IMG/VR virus record: IMGVR_UViG_2684622619_000026
DNA: 25,074 nt
DNA from: a virus
Taxonomy: Duplodnaviria; Heunggongvirae; Uroviricota; Caudoviricetes
Direction: 5' to 3' (one strand)
The position numbers were made by a program, and so were the translations under genes. The notes under the pieces were generated by a model that saw nothing but the letters and a program-made list of their open reading frames with translations, did not search any database and was not told the origin of the DNA. Position 1 is the first letter of the stretch. Every line of letters starts with the position of its first letter. Positions 2,590 to 11,575 of this stretch are shown in pieces.

Positions 2590-3086
2590 CAGTGATGACG
2601 CTCAATCTCGTTGAAAAACAGCCAGCAGCTATGCGCCGGATAATTGGCAAGCATCTTGCCGTCCCTCGCTGGCAGGATACATGTGATTATTATAATCAGA
2701 TGATGGAACGCGAACGGCTAACGGTTTGCTTCCATGCGCAGTTAAAACAGCGTCACGCAACGATGCGTTTTGAAGAAATGAACGACGTCGAACGTGAACG
2801 GCTGGTTTGTGCAATTGATGAATTGCGTGGGGCATTCTCAAAACGCCGTCAGGTTGGCGCAAGTGAGTATGCATATATTAGTTTTTTAACAGTCAGTCAG
2901 CGTCGTACTTTATTTATGCATGCCGGATTGACTGAAAAAGAATTCAACCAGCCATACTGGCGAATTAATGAAGAATCATGTTACTGGCGTGATGCTTTAT
3001 TCCGTGCATTACGTGAATTATTCAGCCTGTTTGAGTATGCACCGACAATTCTGACGTCGGTAAAACCAGAGCAATATCTGCATTAA
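2586..3086 (+). CDS. B: replication gene B-like protein
   Basis: 166 aa, the size of P2 B; synteny (cox, small orf, B); GGAGGG upstream of the ATG; identity is by position and size recollection, not a verified alignment. Confidence 0.6.
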   Translation: MTVMTLNLVEKQPAAMRRIIGKHLAVPRWQDTCDYYNQMMERERLTVCFHAQLKQRHATMRFEEMNDVERERLVCAIDELRGAFSKRRQVGASEYAYISFLTVSQRRTLFMHAGLTEKEFNQPYWRINEESCYWRDALFRALRELFSLFEYAPTILTSVKPEQYLH

Positions 3087-3107
3087 ATAATTAACCAGAG
3101 TTTTTAA

Positions 3108-3135
3108 CGCACTTAATCGTGCGGGGCTTCTTTTT
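3108..3135 (+). terminator. weak intrinsic terminator candidate downstream of B
   Basis: Short stem CGCAC/GTGCG (3108-3123) followed by GGCTTCTTTTT; stem is only 5 bp. Confidence 0.25.
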
Positions 3136-3149
3136 GCCTGGAGAAAGTC

Positions 3150-3374
3150 ATGCATACAGTTTCTGAAAACAAGTGCGGTAAATACGCATTACTGCTGCAA
3201 CAGGCCAGAGCCGAAGCACAGGCCGACGCAGCGACACGCTTTTCTTCTCATCTTGACGCCATGATTCGCCATATCACAAAGGCGGAGTTATCCCGCGTGG
3301 AGATAGTCGAGCTGCTCAGTCAGGAGTCGGAAAAATTTCACAATATCGGATTGTCTCGCGGGGAGGTGCTTTGA
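3150..3374 (+). CDS. hypothetical early protein (P2 orf80-position)
   Basis: 74-aa ORF with GGAGAAAG upstream; stop overlaps the next start. Confidence 0.6.
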
Positions 3375-4172: not shown

Positions 4173-6444
4173 AGCCTCCGGGCGTTTTGTCCCTCCGTCA
4201 GCATTTGCTGCAGGCACCGGTAAGGCGTTTACCGGTGCTTATGCATGGAACGCGCCACGCGAGGCCGTCGGGCGCGAAAGACCCCTTACACGTGACGAGA
4301 TGCGTCAGGTGCAAGGTGTTTTATCCACGATTAACCGCCTGCCTTACTTTTTGCGCTCGCTGTTTACTTCACGCTATGACCACATCCGGCGCAATAAAAG
4401 CCCGGTGCACGGGTTTTATTTCCTCACATCCACTTTTCAGCGTCGTTTATGGCCGCGCATTGAGCGTGTGAATCAGCGCCATGAAATGAACACCGACGCG
4501 TCGTTACTGTTTCTGGCAGAGCGTGACCACTATGCGCGCCTGCCGGGAATGAATGACAAGGAGCTGAAAAAGTTTGCTGCCCGTATCTCATCGCAGCTTT
4601 TCATGATGTATGGGGAACTCAGTGATGCCTGGGTGGATGCGCATGGCGAAAAAGAATCGCTGTTTACGGATGAGGCGCAGGCTCACCTCTATGGTCATGT
4701 TGCTGGCGCTGCACGTGCTTTCAATATTTCCCCTCTCTACTGGAAAATATACCGTAAAGGGCAGATGACCACGAGGCAGGCATATTCTGCCATTGCCCGT
4801 CTGTTTAACGATGAGTGGTGGACTCATCAGCTTAAAGGCCAGCGTATGCGCTGGCATGAAGCGTTACTGATAGCTGTCGGGGAGGTCAATAAAGACCGTT
4901 CTCCTTATGCCAGTAAACACGCCATTCGTGATGTGCGTGCGCGCCGCCAGGCAAATCTGGAATTTCTTAAATCGTGTGACCTTGAAAACAGGGAAACCGG
5001 CGAGCGCATCGACCTTATCAGTAAGGTGATGGGCAGTATTTCTAATCCTGAAATTCGCCGGATGGAGCTGATGAACACCATTGCCGGTATTGAGCGTTAC
5101 GCCGCCGCAGAGGGTGATGTGGGGATGTTTATCACGCTGACCGCGCCGTCAAAGTATCACCCGACACGTCAGGTCAGAAAAGGCGAAAGTAAAACCGTTC
5201 AGCTTAATCACGGCTGGAACGATGAGGCATTTAATCCAAAGGATGCGCAGCGTTATCTCTGCCGCATCTGGAGCCTGATGCGCACGGCATTCAAGGATAA
5301 TGATTTACAGGTCTACGGTTTGCGTGTCGTCGAGCCACACCACGACGGAACGCCGCACTGGCATATGATGCTTTTTTGTAATCCACGCCAGCGTAACCAG
5401 ATTATCGAAATCATGCGTCGCTACGCGCTCAAAGAGGATGGAGACGAAAGAGGAGCTGCGCGAAACCGTTTTCAGGCAAAACACCTTAACCGGGGCGGTG
5501 CTGCGGGATATATCGCGAAATACATTTCAAAAAACATCGACGGCTATGCACTGGATGGTCAGCTCGATAACGATACCGGTAAGCCGCTTAAAGATACTGC
5601 CGCGGCTGTTACCGCATGGGCGTCAACGTGGCGCATTCCGCAATTTAAAACGGTTGGACTGCCGACAATGGGGGCTTACCGTGAACTACGCAAATTGCCT
5701 CGCGGCGTCAGTATTGCTGATGAGTTTGACGAACGCGTCGAGGCTGCTCGCGCTGCCGCAGACAGTGGTGATTTTGCGTTGTATATCAGCGCGCAGGGTG
5801 GGGCAAATGTCCCGCGCGATTGTCAGACTGTCAGGGTCGCCCGTAGCCCGTCGGATGACGTTAACGAGTACGAGGAAGAAGTCGAGAGAGTGGTCGGCAT
5901 TTACGCGCCGCATCTCGGCGCGCGTCATATTCATATCACCAGAACGACGGACTGGCGCATTGTGCCGAAAGTTCCGGTCGTTGAGCCTTTGACTTTAAAA
6001 AGCGGCATCGCCGCGCCTCGGAGTCCTGTCAATAACTGTGGAAAACTCACCGGTGGTGATACTTCGTTACCGGCTCCCACACCGACTGAGCATGCTGCAG
6101 CGGTGTTAAATTTAATAGATGAAGGGATTCTAAGTTGGACCGAGCCAGGCATTATGAAGGTACTTAGAGACTTATTGAGTAATGAACTGAAATGCAGTAA
6201 TCGTTCACAGCAGAGCTTTACCCCTTTCAATGGTCGAAGCTACTTTCCTGCCCCATCCGCCCGGTTGACAAGGCAGGAGAGAAAGACTATCCCGAAAATT
6301 AAGGTTCTTCTTGCACAAAGTGACATTCAGGCTAGTTATTGGGAGCTTGAAGCTCTCGCTCGCGGAGCTGTTTTGGATTTTGGGCATAAGCGTTTTAAAT
6401 TTGATAACGATATCGACTTTTTTGACAGACAGCGTGAGTGGTAG
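4162..6444 (+). CDS. A: rolling-circle replication initiator endonuclease A (HUH family)
   Basis: Start taken at the internal Met (MAVKASGRFVPP) rather than the ORF-track start at 4120; HUH-type motif HHDGTPHWHMMLF and tyrosine motif GYIAKYISKNIDGY; about 760 aa as for P2 gpA. Confidence 0.9.
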   Translation: MAVKASGRFVPPSAFAAGTGKAFTGAYAWNAPREAVGRERPLTRDEMRQVQGVLSTINRLPYFLRSLFTSRYDHIRRNKSPVHGFYFLTSTFQRRLWPRIERVNQRHEMNTDASLLFLAERDHYARLPGMNDKELKKFAARISSQLFMMYGELSDAWVDAHGEKESLFTDEAQAHLYGHVAGAARAFNISPLYWKIYRKGQMTTRQAYSAIARLFNDEWWTHQLKGQRMRWHEALLIAVGEVNKDRSPYASKHAIRDVRARRQANLEFLKSCDLENRETGERIDLISKVMGSISNPEIRRMELMNTIAGIERYAAAEGDVGMFITLTAPSKYHPTRQVRKGESKTVQLNHGWNDEAFNPKDAQRYLCRIWSLMRTAFKDNDLQVYGLRVVEPHHDGTPHWHMMLFCNPRQRNQIIEIMRRYALKEDGDERGAARNRFQAKHLNRGGAAGYIAKYISKNIDGYALDGQLDNDTGKPLKDTAAAVTAWASTWRIPQFKTVGLPTMGAYRELRKLPRGVSIADEFDERVEAARAAADSGDFALYISAQGGANVPRDCQTVRVARSPSDDVNEYEEEVERVVGIYAPHLGARHIHITRTTDWRIVPKVPVVEPLTLKSGIAAPRSPVNNCGKLTGGDTSLPAPTPTEHAAAVLNLIDEGILSWTEPGIMKVLRDLLSNELKCSNRSQQSFTPFNGRSYFPAPSARLTRQERKTIPKIKVLLAQSDIQASYWELEALARGAVLDFGHKRFKFDNDIDFFDRQREW

Positions 6445-6533
6445 TTGAAAAAAACGGTCAAACGGGGTAACAATATGTTATTGTTGAGGAATTGTTTGTT
6501 ATAGTTTAATTTTTATACACGGCAGAAAAGCAT
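6445..6533 (+). promoter_or_regulatory. AT-rich leader of the cargo operon with candidate promoter and a short dyad
   Basis: Sharp drop in GC right after the A stop codon; TTGTTT/TTGTTA and TATACA-like hexamers; imperfect dyad AACAATA-TGT-TATTGTT near 6466-6482. Not verified. Confidence 0.3.
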
Positions 6534-7757
6534 ATGAGCATGGTTGAATGGATAAGCCACGAGAAAAAAGATAGCCTGATACTATTTGTACATGGATTAA
6601 ATGGTGGTTTGGAAACATGGAACTTTAATAAAGAAACTTCATTTCCAAAACTATTAGCAGAAGATGAAGACATTGGCAATGTATTTGATATTGCATGTTT
6701 CAATTATTTCACCAAATTTACACAAACGTATGCTAAAACGTCAGGATTATGGGCTCGTATTTTCTCTAAGAAAAATAAGTTAGAGAGAAATTTACCAACT
6801 GATGAAATAGCTGAGTTATTGTATACTGAGATTAGGGTAACGCTAAGTGATTACTCTCGAATTATAATAATCGCCCATAGTATGGGGGGGGTAATATCAA
6901 AAAATCTAATTCTAAAAAAAGTTGAGCATGAGGAACAATCTAATATAATTGGATTCATTTCGTTAGCAGTCCCTCACTTTGGTGCTAAATTGGCGAATAT
7001 AACTTCAATGGTATCTTCAAATGCTCAGTTAGTAGATCTTGGATTGTTAAGTGAAGCGACCGATACGTTGAATAGGCGCTGGATAAATTGTAGCAAAAAA
7101 CTTCCTATCACTAGATATGTTTATGGTTCTCATGACACTATAGTTGATAAAAAAAGCGCATTACCGATGGATAGTGAACGAAATAACTCAATTGCAGTTA
7201 ATGAAGGGCATAGCTCAATTTGCAAGCCCGAAAACAGCTCGTCTACAGTGTTTGTTGCGGTAAAGCAATTTATTCAGCAGATAAATTTAGAAGCACCCAA
7301 GAAGATATGTGTTGAGCGTTTTTCTGATGAGAAACAATATGATAATGAGTATTTCGTCTTAAAAATGATTGTCGCAGATATACATCAGGATATCGCTATG
7401 CATGCAAAGGAATATTATTATAATGCTGAGCTTGCGAGAAATATTTTTACGAGTGATTACGATAGGAAACTACTTGGTCATTTGTATTCTAAAATAAGGG
7501 AGATTTACCAGGAAGAGTATGAGCAATATATCGCGAATTCAATTTCCCCAGATAAATTTATTGCTGCTGTTCATAGACGAATAGCCCAAGAGGATAAGTC
7601 GTCGTTAGATTCTCTTATAAAAAGTTTAGAAACGATACATAAGAAAGGAATGTTGCATCAACTGGCTAACAAAAATGACAGGGATATTGTCTGGTCATCT
7701 GAAACCAGCGTAGAAACTTTGGAGCAATTACGGCGAGGTAATCATGAAGAAAAATAA
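6534..7757 (+). CDS. alpha/beta-hydrolase (serine esterase/lipase-like) effector candidate with C-terminal helical domain; first gene of cargo cassette
   Basis: 407 aa; LILFVHGLNGG (oxyanion-hole-like HG) and nucleophile elbow IIIAHSMGGV (G-x-S-x-G) in the N-terminal ~230 aa; candidate Asp (GSHDTIVD) and His (NEGHSSI); C-terminal ~170 aa charged and helical; about 33% GC versus >50% for the backbone. Confidence 0.7.
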   Translation: MSMVEWISHEKKDSLILFVHGLNGGLETWNFNKETSFPKLLAEDEDIGNVFDIACFNYFTKFTQTYAKTSGLWARIFSKKNKLERNLPTDEIAELLYTEIRVTLSDYSRIIIIAHSMGGVISKNLILKKVEHEEQSNIIGFISLAVPHFGAKLANITSMVSSNAQLVDLGLLSEATDTLNRRWINCSKKLPITRYVYGSHDTIVDKKSALPMDSERNNSIAVNEGHSSICKPENSSSTVFVAVKQFIQQINLEAPKKICVERFSDEKQYDNEYFVLKMIVADIHQDIAMHAKEYYYNAELARNIFTSDYDRKLLGHLYSKIREIYQEEYEQYIANSISPDKFIAAVHRRIAQEDKSSLDSLIKSLETIHKKGMLHQLANKNDRDIVWSSETSVETLEQLRRGNHEEK

Positions 7758-8256
7758 CTTGCCGTATATTCCTCTTGATGAAGAGTATAGCTTGAATTTT
7801 GCTATGCTTGCCATTGCTATATCTATATTATCTCATAGCAAAAAAGGAGTGTTATCATTAGATATTAATAAAATACAAATTTTTATGTATCTGATAAAAA
7901 ACCCATCAAAAATTGATTATGCTCTTACAGTTTCGGGGAAAAAGCCTGCTTGTGTCGAGTCCCAGTTAACTTATACAATAAAGAGTTTTTCAACAAATGT
8001 AGATATCTTATTCGACAATTCCAAAGTGAAATATCTTATAAAAATTATGTCATTGCGGGGATTGCTCTCAGCTGAGAAAAAAAATAATGAGAGTGTTAAA
8101 TTATTTTTATCTGAAAAAGGTAAGGAATTTGCTAGCTCATTGACTGATGGATATTTTAAAGAAATAAAACGACTATCCGAAGCATTGTTACCGCTACAAG
8201 CATTGCCTACCTCTAAGTTAAACTCTGTTATAAATCAAGTCTTCAAGGAGAAATGA
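7744..8256 (+). CDS. small protein, middle gene of cargo cassette (putative adaptor)
   Basis: 170 aa; GAGG SD 5 nt upstream; start overlaps the upstream stop by 14 nt and its stop overlaps the downstream start (ATGA); no recognisable catalytic motif; AT-rich. Confidence 0.65.
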   Translation: MKKNNLPYIPLDEEYSLNFAMLAIAISILSHSKKGVLSLDINKIQIFMYLIKNPSKIDYALTVSGKKPACVESQLTYTIKSFSTNVDILFDNSKVKYLIKIMSLRGLLSAEKKNNESVKLFLSEKGKEFASSLTDGYFKEIKRLSEALLPLQALPTSKLNSVINQVFKEK

Positions 8257-10223
8257 TGAAATCATATCTCAATATCAATAGTTTGATTCTTGTTGGCGTT
8301 CGTAAAAACTACGTCACTACTTTTTATAAAGGTCTCAATGTTATCTACGGAGACTCTGACACAGGTAAGTCAAGCATTCTGGAGTTTATTAATTATCTTT
8401 TAGGTGCTAGCTCTATAGATTTAGCAGATGAAATAAAAACATCAGTAAACTATGCTGCTCTTGAAGTAGTGATCAATGATACTGTATTCACAATCGTAAG
8501 AGATATCTATGATCATAAAAAAGCAATAGAAGTTTATCGTTGTAAGTTTGATGATTTACATAAACATTTTCCGAAAAAATACGCTCCTAATTATAGCCCA
8601 TTATCAAATGTTGATGGTGTTTTTTCGGAGTTTTTACTTGATAGTCTTAATTTTCCAAAGATTGAAATTAAGGTGTCTCCTTCTAAAGCTCATTCACAGA
8701 TGCGCAGGTTAAGTTTTAGAAATATATATAAATTTGTTTATGTAAGTCAGGATGATATTGGTAGTAAATCTTTCTTGCGATTGGGTGATTGGTCCCGCTA
8801 CGCATTTACGAAAGAAGTTTTTAAATACATGTTCAATGTGTTGGATGAAAGCATCGCCAGACTCCAAGGTGAAATATCTGCAAAAAGTAGTTTAGTAACG
8901 GAATTAAATAGGAAGTATCAGATAATATCTGAATTTCTTCGCGATACAGACTATGAAACGATTGAATCAATTGATGATGAGATTAATAGGATAGATCTTG
9001 TTTTAGAAGAACTTGTTGCAGGTTTGTCTGCTCTCGATAAAAATATGAAAGCGGATTCCATACAGTATACAGAATTGAAAGATGCTCACAATTTTATTTC
9101 GCTTAAATACAAAGAGTGCATATTAAATATTACTGCGCTTGAGGATAAGATTGATAAATATTCGCGGTTAAAAAATGACTATGATAATGATATTGAAAAA
9201 CTCAAAGCGATTAAAACAGCAAATTCTCGCATTGGTGTATTGGATAAGGAAGTATTTTCCTGTCCAGTCTGTGATAGCCACATTAAAATAGATGATTCTG
9301 ATTTTCCATTTGAAATTTCATCAGAAAAAGATCTTAATGAAGAGTTGAATTCACTTAGTCGACGTAGACGAAATATTAATGACATGATCTCAGAAATGTC
9401 ATTTAAATTAAAAAAAGAATCAGGTTATAAAAAGGAATTAGATGAACGACTTGACGAGTTGAGAGAATTGATTGACGAAGAAAGCCAGTCAATGATTACA
9501 CCATTCTTGACTCAGAGAGATTTTTATATTAAAGAGATCTCAAAAAATGAGAAGGTTAGGGAGCAGTTAGTAAAAGATTTGAAGGTTAGAAACCAGCAAG
9601 AGGAACTGCTTGAAAAGTATCAGGTACTGAGAAAAGATATTGAAGCATTAACTGAACGCTTGGAGGCGTTAAAGAAAAACGCACCTAGCATGGAGGGCAT
9701 TTTACAAGGTTTGGGTGATAGATTTAGTCAGTATTTGAAGGGTATTAATATCAAAAACAGAACGGGGATAAAAATCTCTGAAAGCTATTACATTCCTGTT
9801 ATAAGAGAAAAAGAATATTTTAAAATAACATCCGGAGGTTTGAGAACTATTTCTTCTATTGGGTATCTTTTGTCTATTCTTGATTATGCAATAGATCATA
9901 ATGTTAACCATCCTTTACTTTTGATATTTGATACGGTTGGCAAATATTTAGGGAAACAGACCAAGGAAAAATATTCAAAAGAAACTCTTGCATTCGAGGA
10001 TGACCTTGAGGGAATGTCAGATCCGATGAAGTATCAAAATATTTATGAACAACTATTGAATACAGTTCAAAAAGCAGAAAGAAAAAATGTTCCGTGCCAG
10101 ATTATATTAGTTGATAATGATTTGCCTAATTCGTTTTCTACTGGTGAACTTTCGAATATTATCGCTCATTATAGCTCGGTTGGTGAGGACGGTTTGCCTT
10201 TAGGTTTAATTGATGACCTTTAA
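8253..10223 (+). CDS. SMC/Rad50-like ABC ATPase with central CxxC motif; third gene of cargo cassette
   Basis: 656 aa; N-terminal Walker A GDSDTGKSS; long heptad-like charged middle region; CPVC near residue 337 (mid-protein); C-terminal TSGG signature-like motif followed by hydrophobic-D LLLIFDT (Walker B-like) and ILVDND. Start may be the ATG at 8256 (better spacing from AAGGAG). Confidence 0.75.
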   Translation: MMKSYLNINSLILVGVRKNYVTTFYKGLNVIYGDSDTGKSSILEFINYLLGASSIDLADEIKTSVNYAALEVVINDTVFTIVRDIYDHKKAIEVYRCKFDDLHKHFPKKYAPNYSPLSNVDGVFSEFLLDSLNFPKIEIKVSPSKAHSQMRRLSFRNIYKFVYVSQDDIGSKSFLRLGDWSRYAFTKEVFKYMFNVLDESIARLQGEISAKSSLVTELNRKYQIISEFLRDTDYETIESIDDEINRIDLVLEELVAGLSALDKNMKADSIQYTELKDAHNFISLKYKECILNITALEDKIDKYSRLKNDYDNDIEKLKAIKTANSRIGVLDKEVFSCPVCDSHIKIDDSDFPFEISSEKDLNEELNSLSRRRRNINDMISEMSFKLKKESGYKKELDERLDELRELIDEESQSMITPFLTQRDFYIKEISKNEKVREQLVKDLKVRNQQEELLEKYQVLRKDIEALTERLEALKKNAPSMEGILQGLGDRFSQYLKGINIKNRTGIKISESYYIPVIREKEYFKITSGGLRTISSIGYLLSILDYAIDHNVNHPLLLIFDTVGKYLGKQTKEKYSKETLAFEDDLEGMSDPMKYQNIYEQLLNTVQKAERKNVPCQIILVDNDLPNSFSTGELSNIIAHYSSVGEDGLPLGLIDDL

Positions 10224-10352
10224 TACTATACATGCATTTTTTTGAATTAGATTGCATGTGGATAATGAGTCTATTTAGTGAAGGGAGGGATTTGTGAGAC
10301 GAGACTTTCGATAAAAATGCAACCGCATTAAAATCGCCACATGAAGCGGGCG

Positions 10353-10371
10353 GGCGAGGCGGGGAAAGCAC
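10353..10371. other. cos: cos site (19-nt cohesive-end sequence of P2/186-type phages)
   Basis: GGCGAGGCGGGGAAAGCAC matches the P2 cohesive-end sequence as I recall it; located between the cargo locus and portal gene Q, where P2 cos lies. Confidence 0.55.
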
Positions 10372-10540: not shown

Positions 10541-11575
10541 TCAGCCGTTGTCAGTGTCCAGTGAGTAGTTTTTAAAGCGGATGACCTCCTGACCGAGCCA
10601 GCCGTTTATCTCGCGGATCCTGTCCTGTAGCGGGATAAGCTCATTGCGGACAAAGACCTTTGCCACTTTCTCAATATCACCCAGCGACCCGACGTTCTCC
10701 GGCTTGCCGCCCATCAACTGAAAGGGGATGCGGTGCGCGTCCAGCAGGTCAGCGGCGCTGGCTTTTTTGATATTAAAAAAATCGTCCTTCGTTGCCACTT
10801 CACTGAGCGGGATAATTTTAATGCCGTCGGCTTTCCCCTGCGGGGCATAGAGAAACAGATTTTTAAAGTTGTTGCGGCCTTTCGACTTGACCATGTTTTC
10901 GCGAAGCATTTCGATATCGTTGCGATCCTGCACGGCATCGGTGACGTACATGATATATCCGGCATGAGCGCCGTTTTCGTAATACTTGCGGCGGAACAGC
11001 GTGGCCGACTCATTCAGCCAGGCAGAATTAAGGGCGCTGAGATATTCCGGCAGGCCGTACAGCTCCTGATTAATATCCGGCTCCAGCAGGTGAAACACGG
11101 AGCCGGGCGCGAAGGCTGTCGGCTCGTTGAAGGACGGCACCCACCAGTAAACATCCTCCTCCACGCCACGGCGGGTATATTTTGCCGGTGAGGTTTCCAG
11201 TCTGATGACCTTACCGGTGGTGCTGTAACGCTTTTCCAGAAACGCATTACCGAACACCAGAAAATCCAGCACAAAGCGGCTGAAATCCTGCTGGGAAAGC
11301 CACGGGTGCGGAATAAACGTTGAAGCCAGAATATTACGTTTGACGTAAATCGGTGAGCTGTGATGTACGGCAGCACGCAGGCTTTTTGCCAGACCGGTAA
11401 AGCTGACCGGTGGCTCATACCATCTGCCGTTACTGATGCACTCGACGTAATCCAGAATGTCACGGCGGTCGAGTACCGGCACCGGTTCACCAAAGGTGAA
11501 TGCCTCCATTTTCGGGGCGCTGGCGGTCATTTTTTTTGCCGCAGGTTGCGGTGTTTTCCCTTTTTTCTTGCTCAT
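10541..11575 (-). CDS. Q: portal protein Q
   Basis: 344 aa; N-terminus MSKKKGKTPQPAAKKMTASAPKMEAFTFGEPVPVLDRRDILDYVECISNGRWYEPP recognised as P2 gpQ-like; ATGA overlap with the upstream P gene. Confidence 0.9.
   Translation of the reverse strand: MSKKKGKTPQPAAKKMTASAPKMEAFTFGEPVPVLDRRDILDYVECISNGRWYEPPVSFTGLAKSLRAAVHHSSPIYVKRNILASTFIPHPWLSQQDFSRFVLDFLVFGNAFLEKRYSTTGKVIRLETSPAKYTRRGVEEDVYWWVPSFNEPTAFAPGSVFHLLEPDINQELYGLPEYLSALNSAWLNESATLFRRKYYENGAHAGYIMYVTDAVQDRNDIEMLRENMVKSKGRNNFKNLFLYAPQGKADGIKIIPLSEVATKDDFFNIKKASAADLLDAHRIPFQLMGGKPENVGSLGDIEKVAKVFVRNELIPLQDRIREINGWLGQEVIRFKNYSLDTDNG

Follow-up and report, generated by a model that had tools for sequence, protein, structure and literature searches.

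The window analysed here, 25,074 nt of DNA from the Caudoviricetes record IMGVR_UViG_2684622619_000026 in IMG/VR, comes from a P2-like prophage of Escherichia coli O157:H7 and carries a three-gene cassette, lmuA-lmuC-lmuB, that very probably encodes an anti-phage system of the Lamassu family. The three open reading frames (ORFs) are co-oriented on the + strand, as are all other cassette features given below, and overlap in an operon-like manner in the ORF list. The gene lmuA (6534-7757) encodes an effector of 407 amino acids (aa) with a predicted alpha/beta-hydrolase domain of the lipase type (approximately aa 1-255), followed by a helical CTD8 domain of the ABC-three-component (ABC-3C) class. 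It is followed by lmuC (7744-8256), for a middle component of 170 aa of the ABC-3C MC4 class, and by lmuB (8253-10223), for a Rad50/SMC-like ABC ATPase of 656 aa that belongs to the short LmuB proteins. The ORFs overlap by 14 nt (lmuA/lmuC) and 4 nt (lmuC/lmuB). An earlier, sequence-only reading of this DNA had described three tightly overlapping AT-rich genes of these same lengths, and its coordinates were exact.

The cassette region (6445-10316) has a GC content of 33.1%; outside it the window averages 52.9%, and the structural genes of the phage reach 56.7%. At 33% GC some 7.5% of random codons are stops, and a composition calculation gives a probability of about 1e-22 for a 656-codon open frame arising by chance. 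With so many stop codons expected at this GC content, chance cannot account for reading frames open over 407 and 656 codons. The start of lmuB can be placed at either of two adjacent ATG codons (8253-8258), of which RefSeq annotates the upstream one in O157 and the downstream one in REL606. The downstream ATG, at 8256, seems the likelier start since most LmuB homologues begin with MKSY; it would give a 1-nt overlap with the lmuC stop codon (TGATG). Residue numbers of LmuB are given here from the first ATG.

The stop codon of gene A (6444) and cos enclose the cassette, as the sequence-only reading had it. The sequence GGCGAGGCGGGGAAAGCAC, which we take to be the P2 cos core, matches at 10353-10371. 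Beyond cos, the portal gene Q (10541-11575) and the terminase genes follow on the - strand, so that the cassette is bordered by gene A on one side and by cos and the portal gene on the other.

The effector gene gave clear profile matches over its full length. The PADLOC LmuA profile PDLC03851 matched aa 3-406 of the protein (3.5e-108). Pfam assigned aa 10-208 to DUF676 (4e-09), PGAP1 and Abhydrolase_1, and aa 265-389 (7326-7700) to the CTD8 domain PF20284, with an E-value of 1.7e-35 and a score of 122.5 bits where the cut-off is 27.6. Across 40 aligned homologues with 39-92% identity, H20-G21, H115-S116-M117-G118-G119, D201 and H226 were invariant. His20-Gly21 (6591-6596) is a candidate HG motif for the oxyanion hole. 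The nucleophile elbow AHSMGG (aa 114-119, 6873-6890) contains Ser116, encoded at 6879-6881; this serine motif had been recognized in the sequence-only reading, which spelled it GHSMGG. Asp201 (7134-7136), which follows strand 192-198 in the structural model, is the candidate catalytic acid of a putative triad, and His226 (7209-7211) the candidate catalytic histidine. Taken from the alignment, the invariant residues have the arrangement predicted for a hydrolase with an oxyanion hole and a Ser-Asp-His triad, the latter in canonical order. The equivalent of His226, H215, is essential in Ec-Lipase, a published lipase-type Lamassu system (PMC12663957).

The fold of LmuA was examined with an AlphaFold2 (AF2) model. 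The hydrolase core was modeled with predicted local distance difference test (pLDDT) values of 85-96 and consists of alternating strands and helices with disordered, lid-like insertions. A Foldseek search of the model against the PDB returned 556 matches at E<=0.001, with lipases, esterases and phospholipases at approximately 1e-6 to 1e-7, and the homologue profile matched 7x2p, a 'putative lipase', at 5.4e-07. Together with the Pfam matches, the model indicates an alpha/beta-hydrolase fold for the N-terminal domain, which agrees with the earlier suggestion of a hydrolase effector rather than a nuclease. The fold neighbours include monoacylglycerol lipases, carboxylesterases, thioesterases, dehalogenases, the phospholipases PlaB and PlaF, and the non-catalytic NDRG2. 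Because these neighbours span lipases, thioesterases and dehalogenases, the substrate class cannot be read from the modeled fold. The C-terminal CTD8 domain is expected, by analogy with the Cap4-type structures, to dock LmuA on LmuB and LmuC and to mediate oligomerization after release.

The middle component was matched by the PADLOC LmuC profile PDLC03869 over aa 3-169 (1.5e-52) and by the Pfam ABC-3C MC4 family PF20290 (5e-27; 95.3 bits, with the cut-off at 28.1). The match of the ATPase to the PADLOC LmuB profile PDLC03862 extends over aa 2-656 (1.5e-235). Residue conservation in LmuB was assessed in an alignment of 30 homologues. The Walker A motif GDSDTGKS (aa 33-40, 8349-8372) includes Lys39, and its residues G33, D34, T37, G38, K39 and S40 are invariant, as are Q166-D167 of the Q-loop and the SGG of the ABC signature (aa 527-529, 9831-9839). 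The Walker B motif LLIFD-T (aa 556-561, 9918-9935) is deviant: D560 and T561 are invariant, and Thr561 replaces the catalytic glutamate. Between the two halves of the ATPase, a CPVC zinc hook (aa 337-340, 9261-9272) lies at the apex of the coiled coil, with C337, P338 and C340 invariant. The Walker A, signature and Walker-B-like motifs had been noticed in the sequence-only reading, which did not mention the CPVC motif.

The AF2 model of LmuB (mean pLDDT 85.4) shows an N-terminal half of the head domain, outgoing helices at 199-327, the CPVC apex, a return at 358-498 and a C-terminal head half. CPVC is located in a non-helical apex between helices 270-327 and 358-476. When this model was used in a Foldseek search of the PDB, ranks 1-4 and 6-8 were taken by LmuB chains of solved Lamassu systems (9uxh, 9hqx, 9hqu, 9nyg, 9ux7), which outranked Rad50, SMC and JetC. 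A profile built from the 30 homologues matched the 660-aa chain 9hqu_A, the LmuB of Salmonella, over nearly its full length (1.5e-11), and in this alignment CPVC is paired with the CPMC hook of 9hqu. Single-sequence searches of the PDB with LmuA, LmuC and LmuB gave nothing useful and missed the solved Lamassu systems; these structures were reached only by profiles and predicted folds. The structure prediction and structural search that had been proposed to verify the first reading thus returned a hydrolase fold for LmuA and Lamassu proteins as the closest relatives of LmuB.

Two other defence families were considered and rejected. For the OLD family and Gabija GajA, which join an ABC ATPase to a C-terminal TOPRIM nuclease domain and to which the ATPase of P2 itself at this locus belongs in type, Pfam found no TOPRIM domain, and the GajA match was weak and confined to the Walker A region (6e-4, aa 19-57). 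For Wadjet JetABCD, the JetC match (6e-4) involved coiled-coil residues only, and no JetA, JetB or JetD genes are present.

The cassette thus combines an LmuB with ABC motifs, a deviant Walker B, a zinc-hook coiled coil and the LmuB fold, an LmuA with an effector and a C-terminal domain, an LmuC, and the Lamassu operon order. We consider it very probable that this is a type II (short, zinc-hook clade) Lamassu / ABC-3C anti-phage system with a lipase-type effector, carried as cargo by a P2-like O157:H7 prophage and acting by a mechanism that we take from homology. The Lamassu-family or ABC-3C architecture suspected earlier is borne out by the full-length PADLOC matches to subfamily-specific LmuA, LmuC and LmuB profiles and by the Pfam CTD8 and MC4 domains; the profile searches that had been proposed came out positive. 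Of the two options that had been left standing, a hydrolase-type Lamassu variant was correct, and a divergent uncharacterized relative was not, as the cassette belongs to a catalogued subtype with a lipase or hydrolase effector.

This assignment fits what has been published on the family. A 2022 study extended the Lamassu family to systems in which other effectors, hydrolases among them, stand in for the LmuA nuclease. In the four systems for which that study saw defence, mutation of the SMC ATPase, mutation of the effector and deletion of lmuC each abolished defence, and protection was by abortive infection. A 2025 classification distinguished long from short Lamassu systems, with 'Lipase' as a short effector, a Walker B of the form hhhhD[Q/S/T/E] and variable CxxC zinc hooks (PMC12663957); the Lamassu_Lipase subtype is composed of LmuB_Short, LmuC_Clade_II and LmuA_Lipase in the authors' tables. 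Another group described lipase LmuA proteins of CTD8 and CTD9 types and proposed liberation and oligomerization as a possible mode of activation. For the subtype itself, the E. coli system Ec-Lipase of the zinc-hook clade protects against lambda-vir (Haudiquet et al., PNAS 2025, PMC12663957). Its defence is lost with LmuB K42A or LmuA H215A, and its overexpression is toxic unless the lipase histidine is mutated (PMC12663957).

The cassette is already known: it is annotated in RefSeq, modeled in PADLOC and catalogued in the P2 hotspot, and its subtype has experimental support. RefSeq names the proteins 'ABC-three component system protein', 'ABC-three component system middle component 4' and 'AAA family ATPase' or 'SMC family protein'. 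NCBIfam contains no specific family for LmuA, LmuC or LmuB, and PHROGs holds near-identical families for the cassette proteins, all labelled 'unknown function'. Published work describes the gpA-cos locus of P2-like phages as a defence hotspot, and the hotspot table of Rousset et al. (2022) includes the exact LmuA of the window, WP_000063136, as 'DUF676/PGAP1 + hypothetical + hypothetical' (PMC9122126). Surveys of O157:H7 with PADLOC and DefenseFinder also report Lamassu-family systems, one of them a distinct one in a clade 8.3 strain that may or may not be the cassette.

A mechanism can be proposed from related systems. In structures of Cap4-type Lamassu, an LmuA1-LmuB2-LmuC1 complex keeps LmuA as a monomer close to the hook and detects DNA ends; it then sets LmuA free, which becomes an active tetramer. 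By analogy, a LmuB dimer joined at its CPxC zinc hook would, with LmuC, keep one LmuA monomer inactive via CTD8. During infection, the LmuB heads and LmuC would bind phage DNA ends or replication intermediates, and ATP-dependent engagement of the heads would free LmuA. Free LmuA would self-associate through its C-terminal domain, and oligomerization would switch on the Ser116/Asp201/His226 hydrolase, which may then destroy an ester-linked substrate that the cell cannot do without, most likely phospholipid of the membrane. Infected cells would die before phage progeny are formed, i.e., by abortive infection. We infer the stoichiometry, the trigger, the release-and-oligomerize switch, the substrate and the activity of the O157 allele by analogy with these systems and with Ec-Lipase.

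A variant of this scheme is that the O157 allele is active and its effector cleaves a specific non-phospholipid ester or thioester, such as an acylated carrier, a lipoprotein or an envelope precursor, rather than simply lysing the membrane. The fold neighbours of LmuA, which include thioesterases and esterases besides lipases, speak for it, and we regard it as a speculative idea with a low probability. If true, it would couple Rad50-like sensing of DNA ends to a new abortive-infection chemistry.

To place the cassette among E. coli genomes, its distribution and alleles were examined. The window matches, at 100% identity, a P2-like prophage that is integrated beside yegR and the gat operon in O157:H7 strains of E. 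coli, among them TW14359, EC4115 and SS52. Of 5426 complete E. coli genomes, 96 have the cassette, each with one copy and always on the chromosome. At least 99% identity was shared by 84 copies, mostly O157:H7 among the matches listed, and 12 copies had 95-99% identity; among the matches listed these were E. coli B strains, at about 97.4%. Dozens of O157:H7 genomes have all three ORFs intact and at 100% identity. The cassette was absent from all of 50,697 phage records, in which the cos-proximal 224 nt before the portal gene alone matched P2-like phages. It was also absent from the plasmid collection, where a single weak match was to a record of 5.37 Mb labelled Klebsiella pneumoniae that is apparently a chromosome. 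Codon differences between the O157 and B alleles had a synonymous to non-synonymous ratio of 21:11 in lmuA and 35:17 in lmuB, which is consistent with purifying selection.

The allele of REL606 (E. coli B) has been cloned and challenged with phages. It is 97.3% identical in DNA to the O157 cassette and occupies the same gpA-cos slot of a P2-like element. In its lmuC, a 2-nt TG insertion after codon 50 leaves a 50-aa ORF and a remnant of 121 aa (positions 2711-3225 of the extracted REL606 locus), whereas lmuC is intact in E. coli B strain CP115178 and in the O157 allele. Rousset et al. (2022) cloned the REL606 allele with its native promoter as pFR106, 'Hydrolase + SMC', and challenged it with eight phages (PMC9122126, Table S2B). 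Plasmid pFR106 appears in the table of 'additional tested systems' and not among the three newly tested P2-hotspot systems that were reported active, and its second protein is tabulated as 50 aa (PMC9122126). Because the REL606 lmuC is frameshifted and deletion of lmuC abolishes Lamassu defence, this result is, judging from the reading frame, uninformative rather than negative for an intact system.

The P2-like element of E. coli B is itself a remnant, in which a truncated portal gene stands fused beside a fragment of a virion morphogenesis gene (5508-6422 of the REL606 locus; 5506-6420 of the CP115178 locus). This remnant keeps gene A and the Lamassu cassette; here the defence cargo has outlived the phage.

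The alternative that survives best accepts that the cassette is Lamassu by descent and holds that it is silent or decaying cargo, for example AT-rich foreign DNA that is silenced, giving no defence in its native context. The low GC content of 33%, together with the failure to find a strong promoter, agrees with this idea, as do the lack of detected defence from the native promoter with the near-identical REL606 allele and the inactivating frameshift in its lmuC, which shows that decay occurs. Against it, the loss of lmuC, whose deletion abolishes Lamassu defence, explains the REL606 result. Moreover, the ORFs are intact and without a single difference across dozens of O157:H7 genomes, and intact also in another E. 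coli B genome; synonymous exceed non-synonymous differences about 2:1 between the alleles; and all catalytic and ATPase motifs are kept. We consider silent cargo unlikely, though it is an alternative to be taken seriously.

It is also conceivable that the main targets are plasmids or rival elements of the P2/P4 type, or that the cassette is an addiction module that stabilizes the prophage. DdmABC, a Lamassu of Vibrio cholerae, acts on plasmids as well as phages, and systems in the P2 hotspot can act against related P2-like phages (PMC9122126). The toxicity of overexpressed Lamassu (PMC12663957) and the retention of the cassette on a degraded prophage remnant in E. coli B also speak for it. On the other hand, the only tested lipase Lamassu protects against a phage, lambda-vir (PMC12663957), and Lamassu is not known to have an antitoxin-like partner or to show an addiction phenotype. 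As far as plasmids and rival elements are concerned, this is a question of target range and is compatible with assignment to Lamassu defence; as a rival to it, we find it quite improbable.

Homologues in other bacteria bear on the last alternative. LmuA and LmuB homologues occur across Gammaproteobacteria, among them Citrobacter, Salmonella, Klebsiella, Serratia, Yersinia, Pectobacterium, Pseudomonas and Shewanella. A lipase-Lamassu operon of 42% identity in Pseudomonas aeruginosa (CP199231) keeps the lmuA-lmuC-lmuB order, as does a Klebsiella homologue that adjoins conjugation (type IV secretion system) genes and ArdC. The contexts of homologues, the inspection of which had been put forward as a check, were defence islands and mobile elements, not housekeeping regions. 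That the cassette is instead a housekeeping SbcC/Rad50 repair ATPase next to an unrelated esterase, as might be thought from names such as 'exonuclease SbcC', 'Rad50' and 'GPI inositol-deacylase' on homologues and from weak matches to SMC, Rad50 and SbcC in NCBIfam and PHROG, is effectively refuted by NCBIfam scores (Rad50, SMC, RecN) far below the curated cut-offs, no adjacent SbcD/Mre11 nuclease partner, the ABC-3C-specific CTD8 and MC4 modules, the ranking of solved Lamassu LmuB chains above Rad50 in the fold search, and the confinement of the cassette to a prophage cargo slot and to 96 of the 5426 complete E. coli genomes.

The P. aeruginosa operon sits in a defence island (a 10,747-bp locus) that also encodes an OLD-TOPRIM ATPase with a UvrD helicase (Gabija-like), a Fic/DUF4172 protein and a NERD/zinc-ribbon protein. 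A second lineage of lipase Lamassu is present in E. coli itself (proteins P0160 and P0100), with about 52% identity to the cassette and an LmuB cluster of 736 members. Its Walker A lysine is K38, not K42, and it may or may not be Ec-Lipase.

Several points nevertheless weigh against the assignment to a lipase-type Lamassu defence system or against parts of it. LmuA's C-terminal domain is all-helical in the AF2 model but was modeled at low to moderate confidence. The scans for promoters and terminators gave nothing convincing. REL606, the only near-identical allele that has been tested, gave no reported defence. Release and oligomerization have been demonstrated for nuclease effectors only, and both defence by the O157 allele and a lipid substrate of LmuA would follow from homology. 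Ec-Lipase has its catalytic residues at K42 and H215, whereas the cassette has K39 (K38 when counted from the second ATG) and H226, in a comparison made by residue numbers alone; because these numbers differ, Ec-Lipase would appear to be a different allele or lineage, possibly a distant one.

The sequences that flank the cassette were analysed as well. The leader (6445-6533, + strand), which runs from the gene A stop to the lmuA start, contains a promoter-like TTGAAA-18-AACAAT (6445-6474), which is a match to the consensus only. A perfect inverted repeat of 7 nt, AACAATA-TGT-TATTGTT (6469-6485), includes the -10-like hexamer of this promoter and is a possible operator. The repeat is unaltered in the E. 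coli B allele, and the leader as a whole is 95.5% identical between O157 and E. coli B. In the promoter scan, promoter-like sites were not enriched over shuffled sequences in the cassette region and no strong or convincing promoter emerged; the terminator scan found no canonical intrinsic terminator directly 3' of lmuB. The untranslated 3' end of the cargo (10224-10316, + strand) has a weak hairpin (10230-10236 / 10253-10259), and similarity to sequenced P2-like phages restarts at about 10317. Rfam gave no match anywhere in the window.

On the other side of the cassette, DNA similarity to sequenced P2-like phages ends within gene A at about 6125-6148, some 100 codons before its stop codon. The GC content drops within this gene A tail (6125-6444), and the O157 and E. 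coli B alleles share this divergent tail at 99.4% identity. It thus seems that the cargo module brings along a gene A 3' end of its own, with a recombination junction inside the gene. At the start of the window, as mapped from annotation, chromosomal yegR (approximately 1-318) is followed by the integrase gene (approximately 583-1596, - strand), a repressor-like helix-turn-helix gene and cox. From this arrangement, the left attachment site of the prophage should be at approximately 320-580.

As a discovery, the cassette matters little, since standard tools call it Lamassu and the P2-hotspot catalogue in the literature has it. What the analysis adds is that the frameshift in the REL606 lmuC explains the published 'Hydrolase + SMC' non-result. 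Lipase-type Lamassu are the least understood effector class of the family, and the cassette is a compact natural example that is borne by a prophage in a major pathogen lineage. The intact O157 allele is a convenient model for the question of the lipase substrate and that of release and oligomerization. The cassette could also bear on the susceptibility of O157:H7 to phage therapy.

Comparison with known systems further defines the position of the cassette. It occupies the same place between gene A and cos as old and tin of P2 and, broadly, shares their role in the exclusion of other phages; the genes themselves are unrelated, and the cassette proteins have no TOPRIM/OLD nuclease domain. Rad50/SbcC-type complexes, the proposed evolutionary origin of Lamassu (PMC12663957), resemble LmuB in the ABC head, the antiparallel coiled coil and the CxxC zinc hook. 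They differ in that the cassette has no Mre11/SbcD, a much shorter coiled coil, D-T instead of D-E in Walker B, and a lipase with an ABC-3C C-terminal domain as partner.

The solved LmuACB of Salmonella enterica (9HQU/9HQX) and the DdmABC / LmuACB of V. cholerae (9NYG, 9UXH) have the same lmuA-lmuC-lmuB architecture and a deviant Walker B. Their LmuB fold is shared, with Foldseek E-values of 1e-15 to 1e-19, and the zinc hook of the cassette is like that of the Salmonella LmuB. These systems differ from the cassette in their Cap4-type nuclease effectors, in other types of C-terminal domain and LmuC, and in LmuB proteins that are only about 15% identical. Ec-Lipase is like the cassette in being a three-gene short Lamassu of E. 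coli that combines a lipase effector with a CxxC zinc hook in LmuB.

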